Source of the DNA: Candidatus Pacearchaeota archaeon
GTDB lineage: Archaea > Nanobdellota > Nanobdellia > UBA10117 > JABICX01
DNA length: 64,000 nt
Direction: 5' to 3'
NCBI GenBank assembly: GCA_017608025.1
Contig: JAFCGM010000001.1
Span: 78,885 to 142,884, forward strand
This document shows, piece after piece, positions 4,775-51,486 of this stretch. The translations under genes were made by a program, and so were the position numbers. The notes under the pieces are model-generated. The model was not told the DNA's origin. It saw only the letters and a list, made by a program, of their open reading frames with translations, and searched no databases. Position 1 is the first letter of the stretch; every line of letters begins with the position of its first letter.

Positions 4775-4846
4775 CCTTTCTTTTAGAAAAAGAAAGCTGA
4801 TAGGCGCGAATTTATACAAAGGGTTCGCTTCTACGCAAAAGAAAAC
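4775..4846. repeat. Copy of the modular intergenic element: cctttcttttagaaaaagaaag + taggcgcgaatttatacaaagggttcgcttct + acgcaaaagaaaac
   Basis: Same GC-rich core ggcgcgaa ... ttcgcttct as the copies at 42251 and 48952. Located in the divergent region between pelota and the 4961 operon. Confidence 0.55.
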
Positions 4847-6162: not shown

Positions 6163-8841
6163 ATGGCGAACTGGAGTAATGCTCTTAAAAAACTTGGTAA
6201 TAAAGCAAAGAAAATTAAGCCTAGCAAAATTAAGGAAGCTTCTGGCAAGGGCGTCAAAGCAGTTAAGGGCAAAGCTAAAAATATTGACTGGAAAAAGCTC
6301 CAAAGACAAGCAAAGGAACAAGCAAAGCAAATTGCAAAGGAACAAGGAAAGGAATTTGTAAAAAGTCAGGTTAAGGGTAAAACAGGCATTGATGTAGATG
6401 CTGTTCAGCAAGGAAACATTAGGTCATCTGCAGAAGGTGTTTTTCAGAAATTCAAAGAAAAAAGAGCCAGTTCTGAAGGAGATGATATTCATCAAATTCC
6501 TGGTTATAATCCATCCGCTCAGGAAGTTGTTGCCCCATCTGCGCAGCAACAAGGGATTCAGAGTGGAATTCCACAGCAGTTTTTGGGAAAATTTGGAAGC
6601 AGGAATAAAGGAAAGGCACCATGGATTGTTGTTTTAATTGCCCTTGCGATTGTTCTTGGCGGATTTTTGCTGATGTTTTCCCCTTTTGATTCAGAGTATT
6701 CAGTTCTGGTTATTCTTGTTGGAGGCGGGGCTCTTTTCGGAGGGCTTCTTTTTATTATTGCAACAAGAACACAGGTTTTTCAGGGAATTGGCATAGTCTT
6801 GAAAATAATTTTCATTGAAAAGCCAAAGCAGTTTTTCTTGTGGGTTAAGAAGAAGTTTGCTGTATGGCGGGAGAGGATTAGAAGAGAAAAAGAGCTTAGA
6901 AAAAAGTCCTGGGATGTTGTTCAGGCGCACAAAGATGAAATATCTCCTCTTTTAATGGAGAGTAAGGGATTTAAGGAGCAAGTAAAGGCAGTAAAGATTT
7001 TTGCTGGCATTGTAATTATTCCAATATTATCGTGCGTATATGCTCTGTACTTTTTTTTCTGGAAAGGCAGGAAAATCAAAAAGCTAATTAAAAAAGAGGA
7101 AAAAGAGCATGAAAAAGAGAGAAAGGCTGAAAAAAAAGCAGAGAAAGACAAACCAGAAGGGTTTTACTCTGGCGGAGCTGGAAGTGGCGGAGGTGCTACT
7201 GGAAAAATTCTTTTAGTTGTTGGAATAATTATTCTTATTCTCGGCGGAACTGCTGGATTCTGGTTTGGATATTACAAGAACACTCCACAAGGGCAGAAGA
7301 TTTCTGAGCAATATCTTTCATTTGGAACAAGTACTTATTCTGCTGAAAGAGGGAGCAGAGGTTTCTTCAATTCAGTTTTTCAGACAATAAAATTTGCATT
7401 TTCAGGAGATGTTGAGGAAATAATGAAGTCAAGAGAAGCAGAGTCAGAATATGCGCAGTTTGAGGAAATAAAAACCACAATGGAGGAAGTAAAGCCCTAT
7501 AAAAATCCAGTTTACAAAGATAGTGATATTTCAATTTACGGATACCTTTCTGTTGAGGACGGACCAGAAGAGGGAACTGCTTTTGAGTTTGAAGTTAGGC
7601 AGCTTATGAATGTTGTAATAAGAAATTACAGGAAAAATCAAGTCTGCGATTCAACTTTGCTGAGCTCTGCAGTTTCTAGCATAGACAGTGTTCTTGATGA
7701 AAATAATCACTGCAACAGCAATCCAGAATGTAAACATTTCTGCACCGACACTTCAGACTGGAAATGCTATATTCCTGGAGGAGATCCTGCAAAGGATTCC
7801 AATGGAAATATTATTCCAAATACATTTTTGTTTAAGAACAGATATAACCAACGAGTAATTTGCAGCCACAGCGGTATACAGGATCCAAAAAAGGATTTGC
7901 AGCTTTCAAAAATAACTCTTATTTGGAAATACTGGACACAGGCAATGCTTGAAAAGAGAGTTTATGTTTTTGATTCTGATTACGCAGCACTTCACAAAAA
8001 TCCACTAAAGTCAGCAAACATCTCAAGGTCTTCTTATGAATCTTTGAGCAAGGCAGAGAAGAACATAGGTTTCGGGGCTGGAATAAGCAAGGACAGGGAT
8101 TACATGGTTACAACTCCGCTAGATGCACTGAAATACGGAATGGATTATATTGAGATTTACAACATTATCTTCACTTTGAGGAACAAGGGTCTTGGTGACA
8201 TTGTGGATTTAAAAGACATTGAGGTATGGATTCCTGATTCTGTAAATGTTGTTGAGGAAGAAGGAGATTTTGAAGTCTGCGGAGAAAAGACTGACAGAGG
8301 AATAGTATTTAAGAAATACTGCCTAAAAAAGGATGTAATAGATTCTTTTGACTCAATTGGGCCAGCGCTGTTCAGGAACTTTTATCTGCCAGTGTATGTT
8401 GAAAGCAGCTTTATAGTTGGAAATGAGTGGTTTGATAGTTTTACTTTGACATCAAAAGTTTATTATAAATACAGAGATGAGGCAATGGTTGATGATGTCA
8501 TAAAAGTTGATGTTGGAAGTTCAGTTAAATTACATAAAACTCAGAACAACACTTCCAGCGCTTCAGAAGTTGTTAGCAAAGAAGAAACTGTTTCTGAATT
8601 AGAGACAATTATTTTTGAGGGTAGGGATGAAAATCATGTCTTTGAAATCACAGATGTAAATCCTGATAAAATTATTTACAATTTTGCTGTATCGCAAGAT
8701 AATGTTATTACAAGCCAGCTAATTATGCTTGGCGAAACAAAAGAATACAACTACAAAAGCGGGCAAGGGGAAATAAAAATATTGCTGAAGCACATTGAGG
8801 GCAATGATGCGCTAGTAAACATAACTGCTACTTATTTTTAA
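6163..8841 (+). CDS. Large polytopic membrane protein with a Lys-rich histone-H1-like cytoplasmic N-tail, 4 TM segments, a Gly-rich linker and a ~530-aa Cys-rich extracellular domain; function unknown
   Basis: N-terminus KKLGNKAKKIKPSKIKEASGKGVKAVKGKAKN; TM helices at ~150-200 and ~280-300; GGAGSGGGATG linker; ectodomain with several Cys (CDSTLL, HCNSNPECKHFCTDTSDWKC). Confidence 0.4.
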   Translation: MANWSNALKKLGNKAKKIKPSKIKEASGKGVKAVKGKAKNIDWKKLQRQAKEQAKQIAKEQGKEFVKSQVKGKTGIDVDAVQQGNIRSSAEGVFQKFKEKRASSEGDDIHQIPGYNPSAQEVVAPSAQQQGIQSGIPQQFLGKFGSRNKGKAPWIVVLIALAIVLGGFLLMFSPFDSEYSVLVILVGGGALFGGLLFIIATRTQVFQGIGIVLKIIFIEKPKQFFLWVKKKFAVWRERIRREKELRKKSWDVVQAHKDEISPLLMESKGFKEQVKAVKIFAGIVIIPILSCVYALYFFFWKGRKIKKLIKKEEKEHEKERKAEKKAEKDKPEGFYSGGAGSGGGATGKILLVVGIIILILGGTAGFWFGYYKNTPQGQKISEQYLSFGTSTYSAERGSRGFFNSVFQTIKFAFSGDVEEIMKSREAESEYAQFEEIKTTMEEVKPYKNPVYKDSDISIYGYLSVEDGPEEGTAFEFEVRQLMNVVIRNYRKNQVCDSTLLSSAVSSIDSVLDENNHCNSNPECKHFCTDTSDWKCYIPGGDPAKDSNGNIIPNTFLFKNRYNQRVICSHSGIQDPKKDLQLSKITLIWKYWTQAMLEKRVYVFDSDYAALHKNPLKSANISRSSYESLSKAEKNIGFGAGISKDRDYMVTTPLDALKYGMDYIEIYNIIFTLRNKGLGDIVDLKDIEVWIPDSVNVVEEEGDFEVCGEKTDRGIVFKKYCLKKDVIDSFDSIGPALFRNFYLPVYVESSFIVGNEWFDSFTLTSKVYYKYRDEAMVDDVIKVDVGSSVKLHKTQNNTSSASEVVSKEETVSELETIIFEGRDENHVFEITDVNPDKIIYNFAVSQDNVITSQLIMLGETKEYNYKSGQGEIKILLKHIEGNDALVNITATYF

Positions 8842-11513: not shown

Positions 11514-11549
11514 GAGCCTTTCTTAAAAAGAAACGCTCGCGAAATAAAT
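11514..11549. repeat. Copy of the intron-like module: gagcctttcttaaaaagaaacgctcgcgaaataaat
   Basis: Aligns with the tRNA-Arg intron gagcccttttctctaaaaagaaaagcgttcgcggaaaaaaac. Confidence 0.5.
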
Positions 11550-16275: not shown

Positions 16276-17547
16276 TTACTTTCCATTTCTTCGCCGTTTC
16301 CGTTTAGGATATGATAATGGATTTCTAATGCCTTTGCACAGTTCATCAGGGACGCATACACCAATGTCTTTGTAATACTGCTCAAGACTGCAGTTTGGAG
16401 GCGGAGAGGTTTTAGTTTGAGCCTTGTGCCAGTTTATCTGGCTTTGTATGTATCCTGTTTTAAGCGCTTCAGCATTTCTTGAATTCCATTCAGTAATTTT
16501 AGCTTCAATTTCCGGCCAGGTCCACTTTGCCTTTTGAAGGAAATTAAGCAATATAAACAAGGCGCGCTTTTTTCCATCAGCAAGGCCTTTGAGAATGTTC
16601 TTTATGCAGGGAGGGAAGAATTCTTCTGGAACTCGGTCCTTAAACTCAACAAATTTTCGGTCAGTCGGTACTGAAACTTTCTCGCTTTTCTTTTTTCTAA
16701 ATCTTAGGTCTTTTGCTTCTGTTATTATGAGGCTCATTTCTGTTCCAGAATAGTTTCCTGGAGTCATGAAGTTTTCATTAACTTTTGTTATGTTTTCCGG
16801 TTTTGCCTGTTCTTTTTTGAAATTTTTCAAGTCCTTTGAATTAATTACAACTGATGCAAGGCCAGATTTTTCATGCAGAGAATATGGAGCGCGAATTAAG
16901 TGGCGAGGAGATGCTAGTTGAATGTCAAGGCCGAGCAATTTCGGGACATCAGTTATGTCTTGTTTTGAATATAATTCTCTTTTTTGATTGTGTTTTTTAA
17001 GGAAATCTTTCAAATCAAAATTGATTTCTCTTAATTTTCTTTCAAAAATATTTTTGCTTTCTTTTATTATATAATACATAAGAGCATCAGAAAGTTCTGG
17101 AAACTCTTTTGCTGCTGATTCTGGAAAAGCTTCAAAAGGAACGCAAATGTGCCAACCTTTATTTCCTGAAAATTTTATTTGCGCAATTACACCATATTCT
17201 TTAAGGACTTCAAGAACAGATTCTGCTGCAAGAGTTGAAATTTTAAAGTCTGGGCAGTCAATGTCAATTATAAAATCCCATCCAATTCTTAAATTGTTCA
17301 TTTCCTGAGGAGTGATTTCAGGTGAGAGTTTCATAGCGTCCTGCCATCTTTCTTGGGAAATGTGAAAAGATGTTGCACCTTCTTTTGCAAAGGAAGATAT
17401 GTCTGAGGGAAACTGGATTATTTGCGGTCTTTTGCTGTAATGGCCCCCCTGAAATTGAACAGCTACTTCTCTGTCTTGCGAAACTTTTGCTATAAATGCT
17501 TTGATTTCTGATTTTGAATAATATTTAATTGCTTCTGACTGTCGCAT
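16276..17547 (-). CDS. priS: Archaeo-eukaryotic DNA primase catalytic subunit PriS with a C-terminal Cys-containing helical extension (fused PriS-PriL-CTD-like)
   Basis: Catalytic motifs WDFIIDIDCPDF (DhD) and KFSGNKGWHICVP (SGxRGxH). 423 aa, about 80 aa longer than stand-alone PriS, with 4 Cys in the tail (PPCIKN, NCSLEQ, GVCVPDELC). Confidence 0.6.
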   Translation of the reverse strand: MRQSEAIKYYSKSEIKAFIAKVSQDREVAVQFQGGHYSKRPQIIQFPSDISSFAKEGATSFHISQERWQDAMKLSPEITPQEMNNLRIGWDFIIDIDCPDFKISTLAAESVLEVLKEYGVIAQIKFSGNKGWHICVPFEAFPESAAKEFPELSDALMYYIIKESKNIFERKLREINFDLKDFLKKHNQKRELYSKQDITDVPKLLGLDIQLASPRHLIRAPYSLHEKSGLASVVINSKDLKNFKKEQAKPENITKVNENFMTPGNYSGTEMSLIITEAKDLRFRKKKSEKVSVPTDRKFVEFKDRVPEEFFPPCIKNILKGLADGKKRALFILLNFLQKAKWTWPEIEAKITEWNSRNAEALKTGYIQSQINWHKAQTKTSPPPNCSLEQYYKDIGVCVPDELCKGIRNPLSYPKRKRRRNGK

Positions 17548-18006
17548 GAAGAAACAATTCTTGTTAAATTTTATATAGTTTTGTAAGATTAAGGGATGTA
17601 TAAAATAGGAGCCAATTGGATGTTTGGATTTTTTAGATTTTGCACTTTATGCAATTCATAAAATTGTTGAAGACAACTGAATTCAAGTAGTATAATTAGT
17701 TTAAATTGTCTAGTTTATTTACCTGATTCTGGAGGACTGAATAAAGAAAATTAGGAAATAGAAATGCTTTTTTAATGAAATTTTTTATATATTTATATTT
17801 ATTATTTAGGTATGGAAAAATTATACGATTCTACAAAAGAGCTGTATTCTTTATTGCCAGAAAAAACAGAAAAAGACAGTCTGAAGTTGTTCTTGAGGTT
17901 TTATTAGATGCCTGTAAAAATTAATTAATTTTGTGCGTGCTATACTTTAATAAGTTTAGAAACCTTTTTAAACAACACAACGAACTATCTTTTACAATGA
18001 CAAACG

Positions 18007-18129
18007 GTGATTACCCCACAGCCCTTTTAAAAAAAGCGCTATTTCATAGGCACGAACTATGTTCGTTTCTGGCGGAAAAATCACTGACACGATAAAAATG
18101 GAAACTGGTGATTACCCCCATCAAGGCTA
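18007..18129. repeat. Modular element (18019..18117) flanked by direct repeats ggtgattacccc (18007..18018 and 18118..18129)
   Basis: The insert cagcccttttaaaaaaagcgctatttcataggcacgaactatgttcgtttctggcggaaaaatc combines the cccttttNaaaaagcg module and the ggcRcgaac-loop-gttcgtttct hairpin seen at 48985. Confidence 0.55.
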
Positions 18130-18201: not shown

Positions 18202-18277
18202 GGCTGGGATAGGGTAGCCTGGTTTATCCTCTGTGGCTGTGGCCCGCAGGACCCGAGTTCGAATCTCGGTCCCGGCC
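18202..18277 (+). tRNA. tRNA-His (anticodon GTG) with genome-encoded G-1 opposite C73
   Basis: Manual fold. Acceptor GCTGGGA/TCCCGGC; anticodon stem TGTGG/CCGCA; loop CTGTGGC; T arm CCGAG-TTCGAAT-CTCGG; extra 5' G pairing with discriminator C. One T-T mismatch in the D stem. No CCA encoded. Lies 66 bp upstream of hisS. Confidence 0.7.
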
Positions 18278-18343
18278 CGAACTTTTCTTTCAAAAAAAAG
18301 CTTACAAAACAATTCTTACTACTGCTCGAAAAGAGGTGCTGTG

Positions 18344-19631: not shown

Positions 19632-22106
19632 TTATTCCAGATAAATGGCAGGTCTGCCTGGCTTTGCCTTTTTTGCTTTGTTTTCAGGGTCATATTTCTT
19701 TTTGTCATTTACTGCAAACACTTTTACTTTCTTTCCAGTTTTTTTTGACAATTTTTCTTCATTGAATATCTCAAGGTCTTTTGGAATTGCATAAATGAAA
19801 ACTTTTTTTGGCTCTTTTTTCTTTTTGTCTTTTATTATTTTTGAGATTTCAGCAATGTCTGAAATTGTGTTTTCGAATATTTTGTCTTGCTGCTCGAATT
19901 TTTCATTTATTTTTTTAGTGTCTGCTTCTGGCCAGTTTTGGATTGTAATGAATTTTTTGTTTCCGAGTTTCTCCCAAAGCTCTTCAGTTATGTGCGGGCA
20001 GAAAGGATGCAATAGCTTAAGGAAAATTTCTGCATGTTTTTTGCTTAAATTCTTTTCATCTTCAATTGCTTCAAAAAGCTCGCGAATTTTTATTGCTGAA
20101 ATATTATATTTGAAATTTTCAATGCTTTCTGAGACTTCCAAAATTGTTTTGTTTATTTTGCTTTCCAACCGTGGGCTTGTTTTTGATGGGTTGAATTCTG
20201 AATAGAAATCTATTATTCTGTTAATCAGTTTTTTGCTTCCTTGAATTCCTTTATCACTCCATTCTATATCTTTGTCTAGAGAAGCAAGAGATATAAGGAA
20301 CAGCCGTGCAGTGTCCATTCCGTATTTTTTTGAAACTGTTTCTGGCAGTATAACATTTCCCCAGGACTTTGACATTTTTCTTTTATCTGGACCGTGCAAC
20401 ATTCCCTGATTGAACAGTTTTATTGCGGGTTCGCTGAATTTCAAAAGACCCTGGTCGCGAAGGAATTTTGTGTAGAATCTGAAATAAATAAGATGCATGC
20501 AAGCGTGTTCGCGTCCGCCAATGTAAAGGTCAACAGGACACCAGTAGTTTGCCTTTTTTGAGTCAAATATTTTCTTGGAATTTTTCGGGTCAGTGTATCT
20601 GAGAAAGTACCATGAGGAGTTTACAAAAGTGTCCATTGTGTCTGTTTCCCTTTTCGCAGGTCCTTTGCATTTAGGACATTTTACATTTGCAAAAGACTTG
20701 CTTGTTTCAAGAGGATTTCCTTTTCCGAACTTAATATCTTTTGGTAGCTTTATTGGAAGTTCTTTTTCTGGAACTGGCACAGCTCCGCATTTTTCGCAAT
20801 GAATTATTGGTATTGGTGTTCCCCAATATCTCTGCCTTGATATAAGCCAGTCCCGGAGCTTGAATTGGATAACTCTTCTTCCTATTTTCCTTTTTTCAAG
20901 GTATTCTGCAATTTCATCTATTGCGTCACGATTCCAAGTTGCATTGAATTCTTTTGAGTTAACAAGATTTCCGTCGCCAGTATATGCTCGGGACATTCTT
21001 TCAGCATTAAGCTCATACATTTCAGGCTGGATTACAACTTTAATTGGAATATTATATTTTTTTGCAAACTCAAAATCCCGCTGATCATGAGCAGGAACTG
21101 CCATAACCATTCCGCAGCCATAGTCAGCAACAACAAAATTTCCAGCATAAACTGGAATTCGGTCTCCTGTTACAGGATTTTCAGCATAGCTTCCAGTGAA
21201 GACTCCTTCTTTTTCAAGCTCTTCTTTTTGTTTTTCTGAAACTGAATGAATTTTCTTCAGGAACTTTTCAACATTTTTTTTATGCTTTTCAGTTACAATA
21301 TCCATTAAGTCTGGGTGCTGTGCAGAAATCACCATGAAAGTTACACCGTAAATTGTGTCTGGTCTTGTTGTGAAAATCGGCCAAGTTTTTTCCTTTATCT
21401 TAAAGTCGATTTCAACTCCGTGGCTTTTTCCAATCCAGTGGCGCTGCATTGCTTTTATGTCTTCTGGCCATTTTTTTAATTTTTCAATGTCATTGTAAAG
21501 CTCATTAGCGTATTTTGTTATCTTGAAAAACCACTGCTTCAATGGCTTTATTTCAACATTTGTGTTTTCATGGCGCCAGCATTTTCCATTATAGACCTGT
21601 TCATTTGCAAGCACTGTTTGGCATTTTGGGCACCAATTCACGCTTGACTTTTTTTGATAAGCGAGGCCTTTTTTGAACATCTGCAAGAAAATCCATTGGT
21701 CCCATTTATAATATTCTGGATCAGAAGTTACAATCATTCTTTCCCAGTCATAGCTCAAGCCAATTGACTTGTGCTGTTTTATGAAATTCTTAATTGACTT
21801 TTTAGTGTAGTCTTCTGGATGAATTTTTGCCTTGATTGCTGCGTTTTCAGCAGGAAGTCCGAGGGCATCATAACCCATTGGATACATAACATTAAATCCT
21901 TTCATTCTTTTGTATCTGGCGAAAATGTCTCCGATTGTGTAATTGAAAGCATGTCCCATGTGAAGACCGTAAGCAGAAGGGTAAGGGAACATTTCAAGAA
22001 CATAGAATTTTTTCTTTTTTGGATTGGCTTTTGCTTGAAAGACTTTTTTGTCTTCCCATTTCTTTTGCCACTTTTCCTCGATTTTCTTAAAATTGACTGC
22101 AGTCAT
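19632..22106 (-). CDS. leuS: Leucyl-tRNA synthetase, bacterial-type
   Basis: MFPYPSAYGLHMGHAFNYTIGDIFARYKRMKGFNVMYPMGYDALGLPAEN matches the bacterial LeuRS consensus (HMGH ... NYTIGD ... DAFGLPAE). KMSKS present. 824 aa. Confidence 0.75.
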   Translation of the reverse strand: MTAVNFKKIEEKWQKKWEDKKVFQAKANPKKKKFYVLEMFPYPSAYGLHMGHAFNYTIGDIFARYKRMKGFNVMYPMGYDALGLPAENAAIKAKIHPEDYTKKSIKNFIKQHKSIGLSYDWERMIVTSDPEYYKWDQWIFLQMFKKGLAYQKKSSVNWCPKCQTVLANEQVYNGKCWRHENTNVEIKPLKQWFFKITKYANELYNDIEKLKKWPEDIKAMQRHWIGKSHGVEIDFKIKEKTWPIFTTRPDTIYGVTFMVISAQHPDLMDIVTEKHKKNVEKFLKKIHSVSEKQKEELEKEGVFTGSYAENPVTGDRIPVYAGNFVVADYGCGMVMAVPAHDQRDFEFAKKYNIPIKVVIQPEMYELNAERMSRAYTGDGNLVNSKEFNATWNRDAIDEIAEYLEKRKIGRRVIQFKLRDWLISRQRYWGTPIPIIHCEKCGAVPVPEKELPIKLPKDIKFGKGNPLETSKSFANVKCPKCKGPAKRETDTMDTFVNSSWYFLRYTDPKNSKKIFDSKKANYWCPVDLYIGGREHACMHLIYFRFYTKFLRDQGLLKFSEPAIKLFNQGMLHGPDKRKMSKSWGNVILPETVSKKYGMDTARLFLISLASLDKDIEWSDKGIQGSKKLINRIIDFYSEFNPSKTSPRLESKINKTILEVSESIENFKYNISAIKIRELFEAIEDEKNLSKKHAEIFLKLLHPFCPHITEELWEKLGNKKFITIQNWPEADTKKINEKFEQQDKIFENTISDIAEISKIIKDKKKKEPKKVFIYAIPKDLEIFNEEKLSKKTGKKVKVFAVNDKKKYDPENKAKKAKPGRPAIYLE

Positions 22107-22442: not shown

Positions 22443-22488
22443 TTCCAAATGCTTTTTTCGAGCGAAGCGAGAATTTTTGGCAACTTGC

Positions 22489-22541: not shown

Positions 22542-22679
22542 AAAGGCAGAGCGAGCCCGGAGGGATTCGAACCCACGATCTACAGCTTCCTTCAACCTGT
22601 CGCAGAAGTTTTTTTCCGCGAACGCTTTTCTTTTTAGAGAAAAGGGCTCTTAGAAGGCTGTCGCCCTATCCAGACTAGG
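22542..22679 (-). tRNA. tRNA-Arg (anticodon TCT) interrupted by a ~63-nt intron at the canonical 37/38 position (intron approx 22578..22640)
   Basis: Manual fold of the reverse complement. Acceptor GGGCCCG/CGGGCTC; D arm GCCT-AGTCTGGATA-GGGC; anticodon stem ACAGC ... GCTGT with loop CTTCTA|intron|A; T arm GTGGG-TTCGAAT-CCCTC (one T-T mismatch). Exon CTTC pairs with the intron 3' end GAAG, giving a BHB-like central helix. Confidence 0.7.
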
Positions 22680-22839
22680 CTACGGGCCCAGAAATAAGAA
22701 CTTTGACTAATTTATAAAAGTTTTCAATATTTTTTCCAACAAAAATTTAGGAATAAAGCATATTTAATTGTTTAACTCTAGTAGCAAAATATTTAAAAAC
22801 ATCATTTTTGAGTAACAACATAACACACTTGGAGAATTA

Positions 22840-25137
22840 ATGATGAAAAAAATACTTTTATTAACTATACTAGCAGTAACTTTACTTGTCAGTTTTTCAG
22901 CTGTGAATGCAGCAGTTGTTATAAATGAATTTGAGCCGAATCCAGATGATGGATGTCTTGATTGTGCTGAGTGGGTTGAGATAAGAAGAACAACTTCAAG
23001 TGACCCAACATCTTTTGTTTTGGATGCTGGCGGACAAAATACAAGCTTTTCTTTTAATTCTGAAGGCTATTTAGTTGTGACGGGCAACTTGTCTGTTTTT
23101 TCAACAATGTATCCAAATGCTTCTGGAACAATTATTGAAGGGAATATAAGCTTAAATAATGACAAAGATACAATAATAATATACAATTCTTCAAATAATG
23201 CTGTTTTGGATAATGTAACATATGGTGATTTTTCATCAAAAGAAGGACAATCTTTAGGATTATATTATGATAATCTGAATGACCATTACTATTCATATGC
23301 AAACCCAACACCAACACAACAAAACCCTGATGTATTACCTCCAGGTAAACCAACTAACATCAATTCAGAAGTAGGTTTGTCCTCTATTAAATGGACCTGG
23401 ACAAACCCTTCTGATGAAACAGATGGCTCTGGATTCAAGCATGTTGAAGTCTACTTGAATGGCGTATTTCAGGAAAACTCCACTTTAGGAGAATTTACTG
23501 CAACAGGACTTACAAGAGATACAATTTACACTATAAAATTAATTGCTGTTGATAATGCAGGGAACAAGGCTGGTGAAGTTACAAGCCAGACAAAAACTCT
23601 TGCACAAGGAGTTTACATTAAATCAGTTGATTTGAGCAGAGAAGTTGATTCAGAAAGGCAGACTGTTGTTGAGACTTCAATAATAAACAATACTGCGCTT
23701 GAAGATTATTCTGCGCTTTCTTATGAGATTTCAAACTTGAAATGGGAAGGGAAAGATTCTTATTCATTTGAAAGTCCTGAGTTCATATCAATAAGGCAAT
23801 CACCAATAAGCCTTGCAAGTGGCTCTTCAGCAACTCTTGTTTTTGATGTTACAATTCCTTCAAGAAGTGAGGTTGAAGGATATGGTTATTATAAGGCAAC
23901 ATATAGAGTTCTTGAAGGCACAACAGAACTTGCCACAGAGTCATTCAACTTGAGGCTTTTGCCAGAAGATTATGATAATGACTTAGAGATTTCAGACATT
24001 GACTTAGATGATGATGAGCTTTTCCCTGGAGATGAGACAACTCTTGAAATTGAAGTTGATAATAACTTTGATGATGACATTGATGATGTTGAAGTTATTG
24101 TGCTAAATGAGAATCTTGATATTGATGAATCTTTTGACATTGGAAGCATTGATGAGGGAGATGATGCAACAGTATCAGCTGATTTACAAATTCCTTATGA
24201 TTCTGAAGAAGGAGATTATACTCTTTTAATTTTGGTTACTGGGGAAGACCCAGATGGAAATGATATCTCAACTTATGATTTAATTGATTTGAGTGTTGAG
24301 AAAGATAGCCATGATTTGGTCATTTCTGAAATAGATGTTTCAGATGAGGAAATAAGCTGCGGGTCAATACTTTATGTTGATGTGGAAGTTACAAACATTG
24401 GAACAAGTGATGAAGATGACCTTGTTATAAGGCTTAAAAACAGTGAGCTTAACTATGAGGAAATTGAAACTCTTGATGAGCTTGAGGAAAATGAGGACGA
24501 GACATTCACTTTTGAAGTAAGGCTTCCTGTCGACATTGACTCTGGAGCTTATATTTTTAATGCTGAGATTGAATATGATGACGATGAGGATCAGGACAAT
24601 GACAATCATTTGAGAAGTTCTGTAGGAGTGACAATTAACTGCGGGGAAAGTAACGCAAGAGGAGAAACTGGCGAAGCAACGCTTTCCGGAGACATGGAAA
24701 AGACAATAACTCAAGGAACAAATGCAGTGTTTTCATTTGAGCTTGAGAATATTGGTGATAAAGATGCAGAGTATGAGTTGAAAGTTTCTGGATATTCTGG
24801 ATGGGCTTCTGAAGTTGTAACTGAACCAGAAGGAGTTTTCATAATCTCGCCTGGTGAGACAGTTCCAGTTAAAATATATGTTTATCCAGAATCAGACGCA
24901 GCTGGAAGCGCAAGCTTGTTTTTGAAAGTTTACTCAAATGATGAAGTTGTTATTTCAGAAACAATTTCTCTGAACATTGTTTCTTTAAGAGAACGAGCAG
25001 AAACTGGTGGAGAAATTGACTATTCAACAATTTTCCTTGTTGGCGCAATTGTTGTCGGAATTGCTGCCCTAGCAGGAATTTATATATTTGCAAACAAAAA
25101 TTCATTGCTTAATGGCAGGAAAAAGAGGGAAAAATAG
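22840..25137 (+). CDS. Secreted cell-surface protein with a fibronectin type III domain, acidic Asp/Glu-rich repeats, CARDB-like domains and a C-terminal TM anchor
   Basis: Signal peptide; FN3 signature SSIKWTWTNPSDETDGSGFKHVEVYLNG...TIYTIKLIAVDNAGN; repeats ending V.V.N.G; C-terminal IFLVGAIVVGIAALAGIYIF followed by KKREK. Confidence 0.5.
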   Translation: MMKKILLLTILAVTLLVSFSAVNAAVVINEFEPNPDDGCLDCAEWVEIRRTTSSDPTSFVLDAGGQNTSFSFNSEGYLVVTGNLSVFSTMYPNASGTIIEGNISLNNDKDTIIIYNSSNNAVLDNVTYGDFSSKEGQSLGLYYDNLNDHYYSYANPTPTQQNPDVLPPGKPTNINSEVGLSSIKWTWTNPSDETDGSGFKHVEVYLNGVFQENSTLGEFTATGLTRDTIYTIKLIAVDNAGNKAGEVTSQTKTLAQGVYIKSVDLSREVDSERQTVVETSIINNTALEDYSALSYEISNLKWEGKDSYSFESPEFISIRQSPISLASGSSATLVFDVTIPSRSEVEGYGYYKATYRVLEGTTELATESFNLRLLPEDYDNDLEISDIDLDDDELFPGDETTLEIEVDNNFDDDIDDVEVIVLNENLDIDESFDIGSIDEGDDATVSADLQIPYDSEEGDYTLLILVTGEDPDGNDISTYDLIDLSVEKDSHDLVISEIDVSDEEISCGSILYVDVEVTNIGTSDEDDLVIRLKNSELNYEEIETLDELEENEDETFTFEVRLPVDIDSGAYIFNAEIEYDDDEDQDNDNHLRSSVGVTINCGESNARGETGEATLSGDMEKTITQGTNAVFSFELENIGDKDAEYELKVSGYSGWASEVVTEPEGVFIISPGETVPVKIYVYPESDAAGSASLFLKVYSNDEVVISETISLNIVSLRERAETGGEIDYSTIFLVGAIVVGIAALAGIYIFANKNSLLNGRKKREK

Positions 25138-25303
25138 TGAAAAAATTATGTTCACTTGAGCCCCTTTTAGAAAAAGCGGCTGCGGAAAACACAGCAGGCA
25201 AGCAAAAAATGATGCCTGCAAGCCCCGTTTGGAAAAAGCGGCTAAGACTGCGTCTAAGGCGGCTACGCCTTCTGCGGAAAAGTGAAAAAATAATGTTCAC
25301 TTG
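25136..25303. repeat. Two copies of the cccttttNgaaaaagcggct module (25159..25280) flanked by the 23-bp direct repeat agtgaaaaaat(t/a)atgttcacttg (25136..25158 and 25281..25303)
   Basis: Direct reading. The first repeat copy starts at the stop codon of the upstream gene. Confidence 0.55.
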
Positions 25304-26982: not shown

Positions 26983-27063
26983 ATTTTTCTTTCTTTTTTT
27001 ATTTATCTTTTTCTTTTTTGAAAAAAGAAAACCAATGCTAAAAAAACTATTTAATTTTTAATA

Positions 27064-27239
27064 TCTTCTGCAAAAGAACTTTTTATTTCTTATATTATAA
27101 CTATTGAACCCTTTTAGAAAAAGCGTTCACGGAAAAACTTTTAGAAAAAGTTTCATCAAAAAAAGAATATAAGATAAGAGCTTTTCTTAGAAAGAACATC
27201 TTCTGCAAAAGAACTTTTTATTTCTTATATTATAACTAT
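27064..27239. repeat. Element (27105..27198, containing gaacccttttagaaaaagcgttcacggaaaaac) flanked by the 41-bp perfect direct repeat tcttctgcaaaagaactttttatttcttatattataactat (27064..27104 and 27199..27239)
   Basis: Direct reading. Confidence 0.6.
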
Positions 27240-29635: not shown

Positions 29636-30538
29636 TTATATGCTTATTTTGTCAAAATCCTTTGCAAACTTTGAGTTTTTGAATACAGATATGGCTTCCT
29701 TTTCAAGTTCTTTTGTGTTTTTGTACCTTTGGCTGAAGTGAAGTATGTAGAGTTCTTTTGATTTGGATTTCTTTGCAAGCTTTGCTGCATCCTTGACTGT
29801 CATGTGCCCGCCTTTTTCCCTTGCCTTTTCTCTGAGCTTGTTTGAGAATGTGCCTTCTGAAATCAAAATGTTTGAGTCCTTTACAAATTCAGTAAGGTCT
29901 GGAAAGAATTCTGTGTCGAGGACTACTGAGATTTTCTTTCCTTTTTCAATATAAACAGCGTCCTTTGGTTTTATTTCCTTTCCTTCAACATTAATTGATT
30001 TTCCTTCAAGCAAAGGCTTCACTTTAGGGGTGTCTTGCAGCCCGTATTTGGTAAGAACTTTTTTGTTAAGCTTTTTTCTGTCTTTTTCCTTAAAGAAGTA
30101 AGCTACAGTAGGGATTGAGTGATTTACATTCATTCCATATATTTCATATGTTTTTTCGTCAACCACCTTGACTGGCTTTTTTGATGAAAATTCTTTTATT
30201 TTGACTTTAAATGGCAAGCCTATTTTGAATGCTTCCATTATTTCTTTGAATTTTTTCTTTGTTCCTGTTGGTCCATAGATTTCAAGAGAAGGAATTCGGT
30301 TTGATGTTGCAAGAGATTGTATTAGACCTGGAAGACCAAAAACATGGTCCCCATGCCAGTGAGTGATGAATATTTTACTGATTTTCATTGGATTTTCTTT
30401 TGCTATTCTAAACTGACGCTGAGTTCCTTCTCCACAGTCAAAGAGCAAGGACTCACCATTGTACTTGAGAAGCACTGCTACGTGATTTCTTTTTTCTGTT
30501 GGATATGCTGAGCTTGTGCCCAGAAAAACGACTTTCAT
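29636..30538 (-). CDS. rnz: Ribonuclease Z (tRNA 3' endonuclease, metallo-beta-lactamase fold)
   Basis: MKVVFLGTSSAYPT...FDCGEGTQRQ ... ITHWHGDHVFGLPGL (HxHxDH motif). Confidence 0.7.
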   Translation of the reverse strand: MKVVFLGTSSAYPTEKRNHVAVLLKYNGESLLFDCGEGTQRQFRIAKENPMKISKIFITHWHGDHVFGLPGLIQSLATSNRIPSLEIYGPTGTKKKFKEIMEAFKIGLPFKVKIKEFSSKKPVKVVDEKTYEIYGMNVNHSIPTVAYFFKEKDRKKLNKKVLTKYGLQDTPKVKPLLEGKSINVEGKEIKPKDAVYIEKGKKISVVLDTEFFPDLTEFVKDSNILISEGTFSNKLREKAREKGGHMTVKDAAKLAKKSKSKELYILHFSQRYKNTKELEKEAISVFKNSKFAKDFDKISI

Positions 30539-30591: not shown

Positions 30592-31131
30592 ATGAAAAAA
30601 CAAGAAGTTTCTGGGGACATTGTAAGGGGAAAGGTTATTATTGAGGATGATTTTCAAAAAGCGCAGTATCTGAACAGTAGGAGTTTTTTCGGCGAAGTAA
30701 AGGGTGGCAAAAATCCAAGATTGGAATTGTCGCTTTTTGAAGCACTTTATCTTAAGGAAGACGAAAAGTTGAGTGTCAAGAAAAATTCGAAGAAGATTTC
30801 TGTTAAGGCATTTATTGAAAAAGCAGAGAAAGTTATTGATGATTTTTATTCTAAATATTGCGTTTTCAAAGATTTAAGAACTCGCGGATACATTCTTAAG
30901 ACTGCTTTGAAATTTGGAGCAGATTTTAGGGTTTATGACAAAGGAGTCAAGCCAGGAAAGAAGCACGCTCGCTGGCTGCTTTATTGCGCTGATGAAAATG
31001 AAAAAATGACCTGGAAGCAGTTTTCTGCAATGAATCGCGTTTCACACTCAACAAAAAAAGCCCTTTTGGTCGGAATTGTTGATTCTGAAGGCGATGTTAC
31101 CTATTATGAGATTAATTGGATTCGGCCTTAA
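30592..31131 (+). CDS. endA: tRNA-splicing endonuclease catalytic subunit (EndA, homotetramer type)
   Basis: N-terminal domain SFFGEVKGG...ELSLFEALYL. Catalytic C-terminus VFKDLRTRGYILKTALKFGADFRVYDKG...HARWLLY with conserved Tyr/His/Lys positions. Confidence 0.65.
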   Translation: MKKQEVSGDIVRGKVIIEDDFQKAQYLNSRSFFGEVKGGKNPRLELSLFEALYLKEDEKLSVKKNSKKISVKAFIEKAEKVIDDFYSKYCVFKDLRTRGYILKTALKFGADFRVYDKGVKPGKKHARWLLYCADENEKMTWKQFSAMNRVSHSTKKALLVGIVDSEGDVTYYEINWIRP

Positions 31132-31233
31132 TTTCTTTTAGTGGAGGTTTTCTTTTTAAGAAAAAGTCCTATGAGATTAATTGGATTCGGCCTTAATTTC
31201 TTTTAGTGGAGGTTTTCTTTTTAAGAAAAGTCT
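31107..31233. repeat. Perfect ~64-bp tandem duplication (31107..31170 and 31171..31233) of the last 8 codons plus stop of endA and 40 bp of downstream sequence
   Basis: Direct reading: atgagattaattggattcggccttaatttcttttagtggaggttttctttttaagaaaa(a)gtc occurs twice head-to-tail. Confidence 0.7.
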
Positions 31234-34507: not shown

Positions 34508-34705
34508 ATGAAAAACCAAATTTCTATTGAAGATTTTTTAAGAGCAAAAGAGATTGCACAAAAACAGAAGACTTTGAAAGATGAGATGCCAGACGTTGAT
34601 AAAATTGCTGAATACATAAACAGCGAAAATTATACTCCTTTTGAAAGAAATAGAAAACTGCTTCTTCCAAAAATTAGTAGAAATTACAAATTAGATGAAT
34701 TTTAA
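34508..34705 (+). CDS. Hypothetical small protein (65 aa)
   Basis: ORF. Its last 5 codons lie within repeat copy R1. Confidence 0.25.
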   Translation: MKNQISIEDFLRAKEIAQKQKTLKDEMPDVDKIAEYINSENYTPFERNRKLLLPKISRNYKLDEF

Positions 34706-34974
34706 CTCATATAATATTTTATGGTGCAGTCTGTCTCGCCCAGACTGTGCGGCAGCGACCAAATTCTGGTTGAAGGTCACTTTTATATGAATTTTAACTC
34801 ATATAATATTTTTTGATGCTCTGAAAGTTTTGTGGTCCTCCTAGCCGAGAGACCCAGGCTGGCGACGAATGTTGGTAATGAAAAGTCGCTTAAATATACA
34901 ATTTCATTAAGATTATTCAAATTCAGTTAGATGAATTTTAACTCATATAATATTTTTTGATGCTCTGAAAGTTT
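34693..34974. repeat. Three direct copies (34693..34719 partial; 34787..34830; 34929..34974) of gatgaattttaactcatataatatttt(ttgatgctctgaaagtttt), the 3' end plus stop of gene 34927..35208. They are separated by two inserts that each carry a gcgacNaaTNtTGGTNaNgaa..gtcRc hairpin (34754..34779; 34860..34889).
   Basis: Direct reading. The third copy encodes KLSEHQKILYELKFI-stop of the minus-strand ORF. Confidence 0.6.
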
Positions 34975-35208
34975 TATGTTGAGAAGCTTTTTTGCAAACA
35001 AGACAATGTCCTCTTCATCTTTTTCAACATAGCCGTCTTTGTAGACTGTTTTTAATATTGTTTTGTATATGTCCAGGCGGTTGGCATTTTCAGGTAGCTT
35101 TGCAAGCTCTGACAGAATTTCATCTTCCTGATCTGAGATTTTCCTGTCATTGTCTTTTGCTTCCTTTTCAATTAGGTTCATTATTTCAATTACATTAGGC
35201 AGTTTCAT
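34927..35208 (-). CDS. Hypothetical small protein (93 aa)
   Basis: ORF; overlaps the start of the downstream M50-like gene by 4 bp. Confidence 0.3.
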   Translation of the reverse strand: MKLPNVIEIMNLIEKEAKDNDRKISDQEDEILSELAKLPENANRLDIYKTILKTVYKDGYVEKDEEDIVLFAKKLLNIKLSEHQKILYELKFI

Positions 35209-42218: not shown

Positions 42219-42380
42219 AAATGTTTATAACTTCTCCGTTTTTAGGCGCAGCACTTTTTCTTAAAAAGAAAACCTGAATTAAATTCAGGCGCGAATTGAA
42301 ACAAAAGTTCGCTTCTGCACTAAAAGAAATTGTTTTTCAATAAAACTCAAATGTTTATAACTTCTCCGTTTTTAGGCGCA
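42219..42380. repeat. Element (42251..42348: gcactttttcttaaaaagaaaa-cctgaattaaattcagg-cgcgaattgaaacaaaagttcgc-ttctgcactaaaagaaa...) flanked by the 32-bp perfect direct repeat aaatgtttataacttctccgtttttaggcgca (42219..42250 and 42349..42380). The second copy is the last 10 codons plus stop of the beta-CASP gene.
   Basis: Direct reading. The outer copy even keeps a stop codon (TAA instead of TGA). Confidence 0.65.
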
Positions 42381-44572: not shown

Positions 44573-44673
44573 TTTGAATACTCTTTAGTGTCCCTATTTA
44601 AATGTTTCGCTGCCTTTTTCGAAAAAAGGCAAGTTGCCAAAGAGCTTGGTTTTGGGATGAGGTAAAGCCCCAT

Positions 44674-48510: not shown

Positions 48511-48630
48511 TTTAATTTCACTCCTTTTTTGCAGAAGCTTTTTCTAAAAGCTTCATTTTACTTTGACCTTATTTAGAAGGCCTGAAGTTTTTAATGGAAT
48601 CCCTTTCAAAAAGGTCTTCCAACCCCAAAC

Positions 48631-48951: not shown

Positions 48952-49035
48952 TTTTCTTTCCCGAAAGAAAGGTCTGAACAAGTTCAGGCGCGAACTCTGT
49001 TCGTTTCTAAGCCTTACCCTAAAGAAAGGGTTCTT
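48952..49035. repeat. Copy of the modular element: ccttttctttcccgaaagaaagg-tctgaacaagttcagg-cgcgaactctgttcg-tttctaagccttaccctaaagaaaggg
   Basis: Same arrangement as 42251..42348, with a compensatory base-pair change in hairpin 1 (ctgaaT..Attcag versus ctgaaC..Gttcag). Confidence 0.55.
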
Positions 49036-49540: not shown

Positions 49541-49864
49541 ATGAAACTAAGACTGCCTACTTTCAGCGAAAGGATTGCAGGGATTTCTGTTCTGACAATG
49601 CTTGGAATTATTTTCTTTTCATGGCAAGAACTTTCACTTGTTGTTAATGTTATTTTCGTATTTTATGTCAGTGGAATGGTAAGCATGTTGATTTCAACAG
49701 GATTAATTTTGTTTTTTGAAAAAGAGTTTCCAGAATTCAAGGAATTTCTGTTTGTTGACAATTTAGGACCAATGAACTTTTCCCTTAGCCTTTTCACTGT
49801 GCTTTTGTTTGTAATTGGATTTATTTTAAGATACTGGATAATTAATTACTATTTGATTCCCTGA
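49541..49864 (+). CDS. Hypothetical membrane protein (3 TM)
   Basis: ORF; hydrophobic segments. Confidence 0.3.
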   Translation: MKLRLPTFSERIAGISVLTMLGIIFFSWQELSLVVNVIFVFYVSGMVSMLISTGLILFFEKEFPEFKEFLFVDNLGPMNFSLSLFTVLLFVIGFILRYWIINYYLIP

Positions 49865-49948
49865 GCCCTTTTGAAAAAAGCGTGAGCAGAAAAAACTATC
49901 TTATAATTATTTTCATATCAGAGCTCTTTTGGAAAAAGCGTTGGGAAA
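49863..49948. repeat. Two copies of the module gagcccttttgaaaaaagcgtgagcagaaaaaac (49863..49895) and ctcttttggaaaaagcgttgggaaac (49921..49946), between the convergent gene ends
   Basis: Alignment with the tRNA-Arg intron and with the 25159/27110 copies. Confidence 0.5.
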
Positions 49949-49949
49949 C

Positions 49950-50120
49950 TTATTGTTCTTTTTTTGAAGCCCACTTTCTTTTTGCAGGGTTTCTCTTGAG
50001 TTTGAGAAGGTTTTTTTCGCATTTTGATGAGCAAAACCACAATATCTTACCGTTTTTCTTTATGAGCATTTTTCCAGTTCCTCTTGGAATCTCTTTTTTG
50101 CAAAAACTGCAGAATTCCAT
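49950..50120 (-). CDS. rpl24e: Ribosomal protein L24e, 56 aa, missed by the ORF track
   Basis: Hand-translated MEFCSFCKKEIPRGTGKMLIKKNGKILWFCSSKCEKNLLKLKRNPAKRKWASKKEQ. The C.FC...I..G.G ... FCS.KC pattern is the L24e signature. The start overlaps the S28e stop (TAATG). Confidence 0.7.
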   Translation of the reverse strand: MEFCSFCKKEIPRGTGKMLIKKNGKILWFCSSKCEKNLLKLKRNPAKRKWASKKEQ

Positions 50121-51043: not shown

Positions 51044-51486
51044 CCTTGGTCACCTTTGTTATGATTAAGTTAGTGAGTTTAAAAAGATTTCGCTGGCTTT
51101 TTCTAAAAGGGCTTATTTGTGCATAAATATGATTTTATTTATTATATAAAGATACTAAGGTAACTCGTTGAATTGTATTGTTCTGTAAGCAATGCTGGTT
51201 CAATTCCAATGCTTTCAAGAGAAGATATTATTGAACTAATTTTTGTGTCATTTCCGCGTATTGATATATTACATATGTCTGTTGGAGAATTTGTAGTTTT
51301 ATAATAACTGAGCTTAAAATCACTTATTGGATAATTAAGTGATTCTTCATCTTTTAATAATGCTACTTTACTTAAAGAAAGAAGTTCTGTTAATCCAATG
51401 ATTCCTCTTTCATCGTGAAAAATACAACGGCCGCAGTTTGTTGCTTCTTGAAGTTTTTTACCAGTATAAAAAATTATTGTGTTTGA

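Follow-up and report, generated by a model that had tools for sequence, protein, structure and literature searches.

In a 64,000-nt stretch of DNA from Candidatus Pacearchaeota archaeon (hereafter the window) a tRNA-Arg(UCU) gene is interrupted by an intron that resembles short sequences dispersed between the genes of the same stretch. How does a tRNA intron come to share its sequence with an intergenic repeat? A previous sequence-only reading of this DNA had offered two answers, namely that the intron derives from a mobile or selfish element family, or that the family spreads from intron-like RNA, the intergenic copies of which might be cut at sites resembling the bulge-helix-bulge (BHB) motif of archaeal introns. 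The first of these answers turned out to be the better one. The intron is, with fair probability, an ordinary intron spliced by the tRNA-splicing endonuclease EndA, into which a copy of a palindromic repeat, selfish and acting at the level of DNA, has settled; the hairpin of this copy would form the helix on the intron side of the splicing motif.

The tRNA-Arg(UCU) gene and the element in its intron

The tRNA gene occupies 22551..22689 on the minus strand, as judged by the Rfam tRNA model, ARAGORN and reading of the sequence, and consists of exon 1 (22689..22651), a 63-nt intron (22650..22588) at the canonical site and exon 2 (22587..22551). The sequence-only reading had boxed the gene at 22542-22679, i.e. 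at the right place but off by about 10 nt; the intron length of about 63 nt and the intron sequence that it quoted were both correct. Hereby, the Rfam model aligns to 22689..22552 (49.2 bits) and assigns an insert of 65 nt to the anticodon loop, and ARAGORN, when introns are allowed, returns tRNA-Arg(tct) at c[22551,22689] with i(39,63), i.e. a 63-nt intron; its default run on the window misses this tRNA. The insertion lies between tRNA positions 37 and 38, with a register that is ambiguous by 1-2 A residues and an identical mature tRNA in either case. Read from the sequence, exon 1 ends in ...ACAGC-CUUCUA (A37) and exon 2 starts with A38-GCUGU. A fold built by hand yields a BHB motif in which the anticodon stem forms the outer helix, C32UUC35 and the intron nucleotides GAAG (22593..22590) form a central helix of 4 bp, and the bulges are U36 A37/A on the 5' side and G A/A38 on the 3' side. 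The intron-side helix is the element's own hairpin, and a linker of 26 nt lies between this hairpin and the strand of the central helix, so that the motif is a relaxed one. The cloverleaf together with the BHB and two intron hairpins amounts to -47.9 kcal/mol, within 1.2 kcal/mol of the minimum free energy (-49.1 kcal/mol); the BHB is absent from the unconstrained minimum free energy fold of the pre-tRNA-Arg.

The processing enzymes named by the sequence-only reading are indeed encoded in the window, in agreement with Pfam. EndA (30592..31131, plus strand; tRNA_int_endo 1e-28, tRNA_int_endo_N 5e-12) is 179 aa long, the size of an alpha4-type subunit. An RNase Z-like metallo-beta-lactamase (29636..30538, minus strand) matches Lactamase_B_2, while its match to Lactamase_B_4 (tRNase Z) scores 25.6 bits, slightly under the curated cut-off of 27. 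The tRNA calls of Rfam and ARAGORN, the hand-written splicing motif and the presence of EndA and the RNase Z-like gene together identify 22650..22588 as intron and not as exon. Presumably, it is an ordinary archaeal BHB intron at 37/38, on which the EndA whose gene lies 8 kb away would act before the ligation step. Since disrupted tRNA genes are associated with DPANN alpha4 EndAs carrying an L3 loop (PMC5829648), cleavage of the proposed relaxed motif is plausible.

The element copy covers 22609..22649 (minus strand), i.e. the 5' two thirds of the intron, and the 3' end of the intron is specific to the tRNA. Its predicted hairpin starts one nucleotide past the 5' splice site and reads GAGC-C-CUUUUCU(cuaaaa)AGAAAAG-C-GUUC. 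Hereby, GAGC (22649-22646) pairs with GUUC (22623-22620) in the outer stem, a C.C mismatch (22645/22624) follows, and CUUUUCU (22644-22638) pairs with AGAAAAG (22631-22625) in the inner stem below a CUAAAA loop; the tail GCGGAAAAAAA (22619-22609) stands 3' of the hairpin.

The general architecture of the element is apparent from copies in 40 unrelated contexts. The unit of about 31 nt can be written as NNN-C-C-CUUUU-RRA-AAAAG-C-G-N'N'N' followed by RCGGAAAA, or as the consensus NNN-CCCUUUU-RR-AAAAAGCG-N'N'N'-R-CGGAAAA. It forms a hairpin whose outer stem has 4 bp (three variable pairs and one C-G pair) and is followed by a C.C mismatch, which is conserved; the inner stem is CUUUU/AAAAG with a loop of 3 nt, and the 8-nt tail RCGGAAAA remains single-stranded. 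The limits of the unit are sharp, the information content dropping to background outside positions -3 to +28. The pattern used for the metagenome scan (CCCTTTTRRAAAAAGCGNNNNCRGAAAA) leaves the three outer pairs free, and these covary: the first is CG in 14 cases, AU in 9, GC in 8 and UA in 5, the second AU in 33, GC in 5 and CG in 2, and the third AU in 30, GC in 8, and CG and GU in one case each. Altogether 98.9% of the cells are paired, a value matched by 0 of 500 shuffles, and slid controls collapse. G.U pairs are nearly absent, the single GU of the third pair being the only one seen.

To quantify the resemblance between intron and element, two covariance models were employed. R1 was built from 7 intergenic window copies with the intron left out, and R2 from 40 non-redundant metagenome copies, none of which stems from the window. 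With R1 the intron is the best non-training match (26.1 bits, E 8e-5). With R2 it scores 40.9 bits (E 2.8e-10) and ranks third in the window after 27103-27142 (58.2 bits) and 25156-25195 (48.1 bits). The assertion that the intron shares its modules with a dispersed intergenic family is thus borne out.

That the resemblance reflects a chance match of AT-rich, low-complexity sequence or a generic T-run terminator palindrome would fit the observation that looser CTTTT-N-AAAAG palindromes are numerous in the genome and that two of the eight copies listed previously are weak (22489 and 11514). The core CCCTTTTRRAAAAAGCG, with up to 2 mismatches, is however found 7 times in the window compared to a mean of 0.2 in shuffled sequences, none of 100 shuffles reaching 7. 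Moreover, the intron is recovered by the independent model R2, the flanks of the element covary, matches on viral contigs lack flanks and tail, and on the sense strand no U-run follows the hairpin. The shuffles, the E-values of the independent model and the covariation led us to discard this explanation, which we regard as extremely improbable.

Eight intergenic copies had been listed by the sequence-only reading, of which five are significant with R2, two (25230 and 11514) are diverged or composite, and one (22489) is not significant (R1 E 0.36). Altogether, 5 strong and about 6 decayed copies are present in the window, in a decay series from 58 to about 12 bits (R2). The listed intergenic sites fold alike: an outer stem of 4 bp and a U/A inner stem closed by C-G flank a 1x1 C.C mismatch, and the loop is small. 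The best-preserved one, GAACCCTTTTAGAAAAAGCGTTCACGGAAAAA, lies at 27106..27137 (plus; R2 58.2 bits, supported by its fold), and a second (25159..25189, plus; R2 48.1 bits) stands right after the stop codon of the gene at 22840..25137. It is followed by a decayed or composite copy at 25221..25281 (plus; R2 11.8 bits, E 0.22, and sequence reading), in which a hairpin (25221-25243, CCCGTTT...) with a T-to-G change in the stem is separated from the tail GCGGAAAA (25274-25281) by a 30-nt insertion; its 36 bits with R1 are not an independent score, since this copy is an R1 training sequence. The copy at 18019..18080 (plus) is likewise composite and consists of a hairpin (18019-18041; R2 27.8 bits), an insertion of about 30 nt with a nested GGCACGAAC..GTTCGTTTCT module (18049-18070) and the tail GGCGGAAAAA (18071-18080). 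Of the remaining listed copies, the one at 49863..49894 (plus; R2 27.6 bits) has a decayed outer stem, and the one at 49921..49950 (plus; R2 17.6 bits, E 0.004) is decayed, with a U.C mismatch and a shortened tail. The copy at 11514..11548 (plus; R1 21.1 bits, E 0.002; R2 E 0.19) represents a diverged subtype, GAGC-C-TTTCTT-AAA-AAGAAA-C-GCTC followed by GCGAAATAAA. Three further copies, all on the minus strand, extend the list: a decayed copy at 51084..51114 between the genes for glutamyl-tRNA synthetase and L7Ae and sense to both (R2 19.4 bits for the hairpin core; an R1 training sequence), a weak copy at 48521..48558 with hairpin CUUUUAGAAAAAG, GAAG/CUUC flanks and tail UGCAAAAAA (R1 24.5 bits, E 2e-4; R2 17.4 bits, hairpin only), and a copy at 44634..44599.

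Several of these copies are bracketed by direct repeats. A 12-nt repeat, GGTGATTACCCC (18006-18017 / 18107-18118), encloses the composite copy upstream of tRNA-His, and a 23-nt repeat, AGTGAAAAAATWATGTTCACTTG (25136-25158 / 25281-25303), encloses exactly the two-copy segment 25159-25280; the latter repeat forms a GUGAA/UUCAC hairpin of its own and reaches into the stop codon of the gene upstream. A 45-nt repeat (98% identical; 27060-27104 / 27195-27239) flanks a 90-nt segment that contains the best element copy and two more hairpins, an A-X-A layout as after insertion with a long target duplication or after partial tandem duplication. Across copies, bracketing repeats with a length of 10 nt or more are enriched relative to control positions (9 of 102 vs 47 of 2000). 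They vary between 11 and 45 nt, the window pairs of 12, 23 and 45 nt (18006/18107, 25136/25281 and 27060/27195) included.

The window also contains other small modules. A second hairpin-plus-tail module, (A)ACTTTTNAGAAAAGTT followed by TCATCAAAAA, adjoins the element at 27138-27161 and on contigs L168, L185, L130 and L188, and may, given its identical architecture, represent a sister family. The 12-mer TTGGCAACTTGC stands beside two weak hairpin copies on opposite strands (22477-22488 and, on the minus strand, 44629-44640), which hints at a further shared flank module. A third module, GGCRCGAA(C)-loop-(G)TTCGYTTCT, occurs four times, always on the plus strand (4803-4832, 18049-18070, 42288-42316 and 48987-49008), the second of these being the one nested in the composite element copy, between its hairpin and its tail. 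A perfect 60-nt tandem duplication (31105-31164 / 31170-31229, period 65 nt) extends across the EndA stop codon, and each of its units closes with a CTTTTTAAGAAAAAG hairpin of the same general class as the element. A degenerate hairpin of the element's class (18279-18312) follows immediately after tRNA-His(GUG) (18203-18278, with an apparent 5' G-1), which is called by ARAGORN; the Rfam tRNA model stays silent there even at E<=1. This tRNA lies directly upstream of the gene for histidyl-tRNA synthetase, whose longest open reading frame call overlaps it. Finally, a 52-nt sequence is repeated three times (34691-34742, 34783-34834 and 34927-34978; 69-96% identical) with GC-rich hairpins in between, the third repeat overlapping the 3' end of the open reading frame 34927..35208 (minus strand); these repeats could be gene-end duplications or a small RNA.

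Distribution of the element and its sites outside tRNA introns

The window belongs to a DPANN archaeon. Its leucyl-tRNA synthetase (LeuRS) is at most 66% identical to those of Pacearchaeota and Woesearchaeota metagenome-assembled genomes, and its gene content includes a fused PriS-PriL, an archaeal exosome, a proteasome, L7Ae and aIF2. The fused primase is a single 423-aa protein (16276-17547, minus strand) with Pfam matches to both primase subunits. The LeuRS (19632-22106, minus strand) is of the bacterial type, its best matches outside DPANN being those of Clostridia and Syntrophales with 47-50% identity, which suggests that an old horizontal transfer reached this archaeal group.

Beyond the window, at least 120 metagenome contigs with the element were found in sediments, groundwater and other environments, with GC contents between 26 and 55%. 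The contigs bear archaeal 23S rRNA, RNase P RNA, an archaeal-type aspartyl-tRNA synthetase, a family B polymerase and a Dph2 homologue, and one further open frame resembles the Topo VI B subunit by inspection. The family, whose density in intergenic DNA the sequence-only reading had considered unusual, is thus no peculiarity of the window, being widespread on environmental, DPANN-type archaeal contigs. R2 finds no copy in 1.27 Mb of LeuRS loci, including about 300 kb from 20 related DPANN genomes; given the at least 120 positive metagenome contigs, the distribution must therefore be patchy. A viral origin was considered as well and rejected, as all 19 IMG/VR matches to the 17-nt core lack the flanks and the tail and are thus random.

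None of the window copies matches an Rfam family at E<=1, and the same holds for 15 element-bearing loci; searches of Rfam 15 and a limited full-text search of the literature, in which the sequence itself was included, gave no match. The element thus looks like an undescribed small selfish DNA repeat. Known motif classes that were tried and rejected comprise a K-turn or L7Ae site (no tandem G.A pairs), a C/D or H/ACA guide RNA within the intron (no boxes) and a promoter built on the TATA-like TTTTAGAA with a transcription factor B recognition element. In the latter case the distances to the next ATG show no sharp peak, classical TATA boxes are found elsewhere, and a promoter would be pointless in coding sequence, introns and rRNA, where copies are located as well.

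Outside genes, copies reside in short spacers between co-directional neighbours, often 0-5 nt after a stop codon or the discriminator base of a tRNA, and in many cases they end 5-25 nt before the next ATG. The element is likewise found within structured RNAs. The archaeal RNase P RNA of contig L154 (5398-5824) contains two copies, and another copy explains a 50-nt insertion in a domain V hairpin loop of the 23S rRNA on this contig (8100-11914). The sub-region alignment of this 23S rRNA stops at model position 2573 (base 8100), and the gene seems to be interrupted further downstream too.

Copies within protein genes are particularly informative. About 20 contigs represent tnpA genes of IS200/IS605 insertion sequences; once the element is removed, the encoded protein matches Y1_Tnp with E 8e-32. 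Hereby, the element occupies three different sites, for each of which filled and empty alleles exist, and alignment of these alleles yields a net gain of 39 nt with 2-3 target bases replaced. In three tnpA copies (L111, L131 and L197) the segment between two element sites is lost, as expected if, judging from these alleles, the element can cause deletions by recombination between copies. A derivation of the element from the ends of IS200/IS605 was rejected, since the end hairpins of the element-bearing insertion sequences are unrelated to it. The Dph2 homologue, compared with PDB 6bxm (E 4e-87), carries an 18-residue insert exactly at the element, and further interrupted open frames resemble, by inspection, a radical S-adenosylmethionine protein, a glycosyltransferase, a CbiZ-like protein and a membrane protein. 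Coding copies lie on the sense strand, in frame and without stops, and add a net 39-54 nt, i.e. 13-18 residues. All copies with at least 60 open codons on both sides are in frame (12 contigs, at least 5-8 independent events), and the stop-containing frame is seen only at gene ends or in decayed insertion sequences. No credible antisense coding copy was found, the antisense spanning frames all looking non-coding.

Since the coding copies keep the frame and contain no stops, translation, i.e. read-through, appears more likely for them than excision. Splicing or ribosomal bypass of these copies was accordingly rejected, no out-of-frame or stop-containing interruption being found except in decayed insertion sequences. 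The geometry of a BHB at the expected register occurs in 24 of 123 copies, compared to 14-24 at control registers, i.e. without excess, and therefore only the tRNA copies belong to a splicing motif. A self-contained minimal BHB intron, in which the GGAA of the tail would pair with an upstream UUYY, was rejected as well, no enrichment of such pairing being found. The second alternative of the sequence-only reading, intron-like RNA cut at BHB-like sites, does not agree with these results: only the 5' two thirds of the intron are shared, the copies outside tRNA genes lack a BHB excess, those in coding sequence are open in frame, and relatives possess the orthologous intron without the element.

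The same set of sites bears on the possibility that the element is a functional RNA motif which has spread by selection. Hereby, the hairpin and RCGGAAAA would be bound or cut by a host protein, punctuate polycistronic transcripts or assist splicing; it could, for instance, mark 3' ends after stop codons and tRNAs and provide the next mRNA with a protected 5' end. The strict sense orientation to window neighbours and in coding sequences, the covarying stem with its invariant single-stranded tail, the many copies which start 0-5 nt past a stop codon or discriminator base and end 5-25 nt before an ATG, the likeness of a hairpin with an 8-nt tail ending in GAAAA to a Cas6-processed CRISPR repeat, and the retention of the hairpin in the orthologous intron of contig L141 all agree with such a role. 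Yet cutting would be destructive at the copies that lie in frame in conserved proteins and at those inside RNase P RNA and 23S rRNA, and many window copies are decayed. In addition, the 20 related DPANN loci lack the element, G.U pairs are almost absent, tnpA alleles occur with and without it, short distances to the genes nearby are what a compact genome would show anyway, and the orientation bias is explained more simply by avoidance of T5 on the sense strand (see below). We thus consider a functional RNA motif unlikely.

Spread of the repeat and its place in tRNA introns

If the element is a selfish repeat instead, its family would spread and decay at the DNA level and persist wherever it is harmless, that is in short co-directional spacers, in loops of structured RNAs and, in frame, in those parts of proteins that tolerate it. 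Within tRNA genes only introns would accommodate it, because splicing removes it there. There, the hairpin would take the one place in the intron that is open to a stable helix, namely position +2 after the bulge at the 5' splice site; as it starts directly after this bulge, it would serve as the intron-side helix of the splicing motif.

The orientation of the copies can be reconciled with this selfish repeat. All window copies are sense to a neighbouring gene, among them 8 of 8 copies that lie between co-directional genes. The element has an A5 on the sense and thus a T5 on the opposite strand, and T-runs are archaeal termination signals. In the coding sequences of the window, runs of at least five T are rare on the sense strand compared to runs of at least five A (95 vs 476). 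Since T-runs are avoided there, selection against the antisense orientation suffices as an explanation. We therefore infer that the sense-only orientation results from selection against the opposite-strand T5 run, an RNA-level role being compatible as well.

For the spread itself, a trans-acting enzyme of the HUH/Y1 type which recognises a single-stranded DNA hairpin with an asymmetric mismatch might be responsible. With its asymmetric mismatch and conserved single-stranded tail, its few G.U pairs and the absence of inverted termini, the element resembles the substrates of such enzymes, namely of the IS200/IS605 TnpA and of the tyrosine transposases (RAYT) associated with repetitive extragenic palindromic (REP) sequences.

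Several observations weigh against a selfish DNA repeat. No transposase or other mobilising gene was seen in the 64-kb window, where tblastn with an IS200-type Y1 TnpA came up empty. There is no regular target-site duplication, flanking k-mers show no excess, an adjacent duplication is found for only 1 of 106 copies, and the insertion sites in tnpA have 2-3 target bases replaced. The strict sense orientation (8/8) and the covarying stem also fit a role at the RNA level. Moreover, the 28-nt core is constant across contigs of very different GC content, which needs either strong constraint or frequent horizontal spread. Finally, the register at +2 is fixed in at least 7 tRNA introns, those in the D-loop included, and the hairpin is retained in L141; this register is more regular than random insertion alone predicts.

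Apart from the window tRNA-Arg, the element is found in introns of tRNA-Gly(GCC) (L123), tRNA-Met (L181), tRNA-Glu(CUC) (L183) and a tRNA of L140, and in D-loop introns of L177 and L151. In all of these at least 7 introns the outer stem starts at intron nucleotide +2. Only the 5' hairpin-plus-tail is common to them, the 3' parts of the Arg, Gly, Met, Glu and D-loop introns being unrelated.

The history of the tRNA-Arg(UCU) intron can be traced in relatives. Among more distant ones, L006 has no intron, and L007 and L012 have introns of 49 and 43 nt at 37/38 which lack the element and share with the window intron only the 3' strand paired to the anticodon loop, being otherwise unrelated in sequence. 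In contrast, the metagenome tRNA-Arg(UCU) of L141, with very similar exons, holds a diverged hairpin in the same register as the window intron, composed of GAGC-C, a U-rich and an A-rich arm, and C-GCUC, followed by GCGAGAAAG, a subtype that it shares with the window copy at 11514. In the simplest history, the intron at 37/38 is older than the element, of which a copy later took the position of the intron-side helix in the window lineage and has since drifted, as visible in its enlarged loop and the G.U pair of its outer stem.

The fixed register also invites a more far-reaching explanation, according to which the element brings about the gain and turnover of tRNA introns in DPANN archaea. The element would land in sense orientation in transcribed DNA, its hairpin would supply the helix by the 5' splice-site bulge, and new EndA-cleavable introns would be born around it at canonical and D-loop positions. 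The idea appears quite unlikely to us. Equally improbable is a broader version, in which the element is a vehicle of intron gain or turnover that inserts into transcribed DNA or RNA, or in which the family descends from an intron hairpin and spreads via intron RNA. The coincidence of the 5' boundary of the element with intron +2, both in the tRNA-Arg of the window and of L141 and in the six other element-bearing tRNA introns named above, speaks for this, as does the presence of the element in non-canonical D-loop introns, which are young; the L3-loop EndAs of DPANN archaea with their disrupted tRNA genes (PMC5829648) and the still open mechanism of archaeal intron transposition (PMC4090602) leave room for it. 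On the other hand, the inner helix of every BHB intron starts at +2, so that the register may merely mean a co-opted hairpin, and in relatives this site is occupied by an intron that lacks the element. Dispersed copies never have their 3' end (GGAAAA) at a 3' splice site, upstream flanks are not complementary to the tail, copies outside tRNA genes show no excess of BHB geometry, and no reverse transcriptase was seen. The tRNA-intron copies moreover are a small minority, about 7 of 120 among the matches listed.

Relation to known repeats and significance

Repeats with similar properties are known from other systems. The GC clusters of yeast mitochondria and the byp elements ('byps') of Magnusiomyces are palindromic mobile insertions of about 30-50 nt in AT-rich compact genomes, where they occupy spacers, variable regions of rRNA and coding sequence. 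They are organellar and eukaryotic, and byps are bypassed by the ribosome, whereas here the frame is open and read-through is the simplest reading. REP sequences and bacterial interspersed mosaic elements with their RAYTs, as well as the end hairpins of IS200/IS605 and their miniature derivatives, are short imperfect palindromes with an asymmetric mismatch and a conserved single-stranded motif; these families have no inverted termini and no regular target duplication and reach a high copy number in transcribed spacers. Like REPs, the present element is a high-copy imperfect palindrome of 20-40 nt, but the REP signature GTAG 5' of the hairpin is absent, the conserved motif RCGGAAAA standing 3' instead, and unlike the extragenic REPs it is also found in coding sequences and RNA genes.

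MITEs, the miniature inverted-repeat transposable elements, possess terminal inverted repeats and a target-site duplication of fixed length, neither of which is seen here, and a review of prokaryotic MITEs lists archaeal ones only in Sulfolobus, haloarchaea and Desulfurococcus. CRISPR repeats are of the same size (28-37 nt) and likewise consist of a hairpin with an 8-nt tail ending in GAAA(A), but form regular repeat-spacer arrays, whereas the element occurs in single or irregularly spaced copies, also inside genes, and no cas genes were seen. On contig L129 (minus, 1079-1240 on that strand) three tandem copies are found at an irregular spacing of 50-74 nt, unlike in a CRISPR array. The third of these copies has a 16-nt loop insertion, comparable to the enlarged loop of the window intron copy, and the next 28 nt are common to copies two and three, a sign of local duplication.

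In its behaviour, the element most closely resembles the Rickettsia palindromic elements, a likeness by analogy with no relationship in sequence. These elements lie in intergenic DNA, in RNA genes and very often in frame in unrelated genes, to whose products they add a tolerated peptide (PMC10969869). Both are thus palindromic repeats of reduced genomes that reside in frame in unrelated protein genes, in non-coding DNA and in RNA genes. The Rickettsia elements, however, measure about 100-150 bp and are confined to one bacterial genus, while the element described here is archaeal, about 31 nt long, present on contigs with 26-55% GC, restricted to the sense orientation and also found in tRNA introns. 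With respect to the latter, the Thermoproteales with their transposed tRNA introns (Fujishima et al. 2010; reviewed in PMC4090602) offer a comparison. There, whole introns are similar and the similarity is limited to tRNA genes, whereas here only a 31-nt 5' module is common and most copies lie outside tRNA genes.

For annotation, the element matters because it disrupts gene models of tRNA, RNase P RNA and rRNA and adds 13-18 residues to predicted proteins. If the intron-gain explanation were true after all, it would provide the first concrete mechanism for archaeal 'intron transposition'. If, as we consider probable, the element is a selfish palindromic repeat carried by an ordinary intron, DPANN archaea would harbour an abundant tiny repeat in spacers, proteins, RNase P RNA, rRNA and tRNA introns. 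Selfish DNA would then persist even in extremely reduced archaeal genomes and cause deletions by recombination between its copies, and a module in fixed register at the 5' ends of many tRNA introns would offer a testable handle on how such introns are gained and remodelled.

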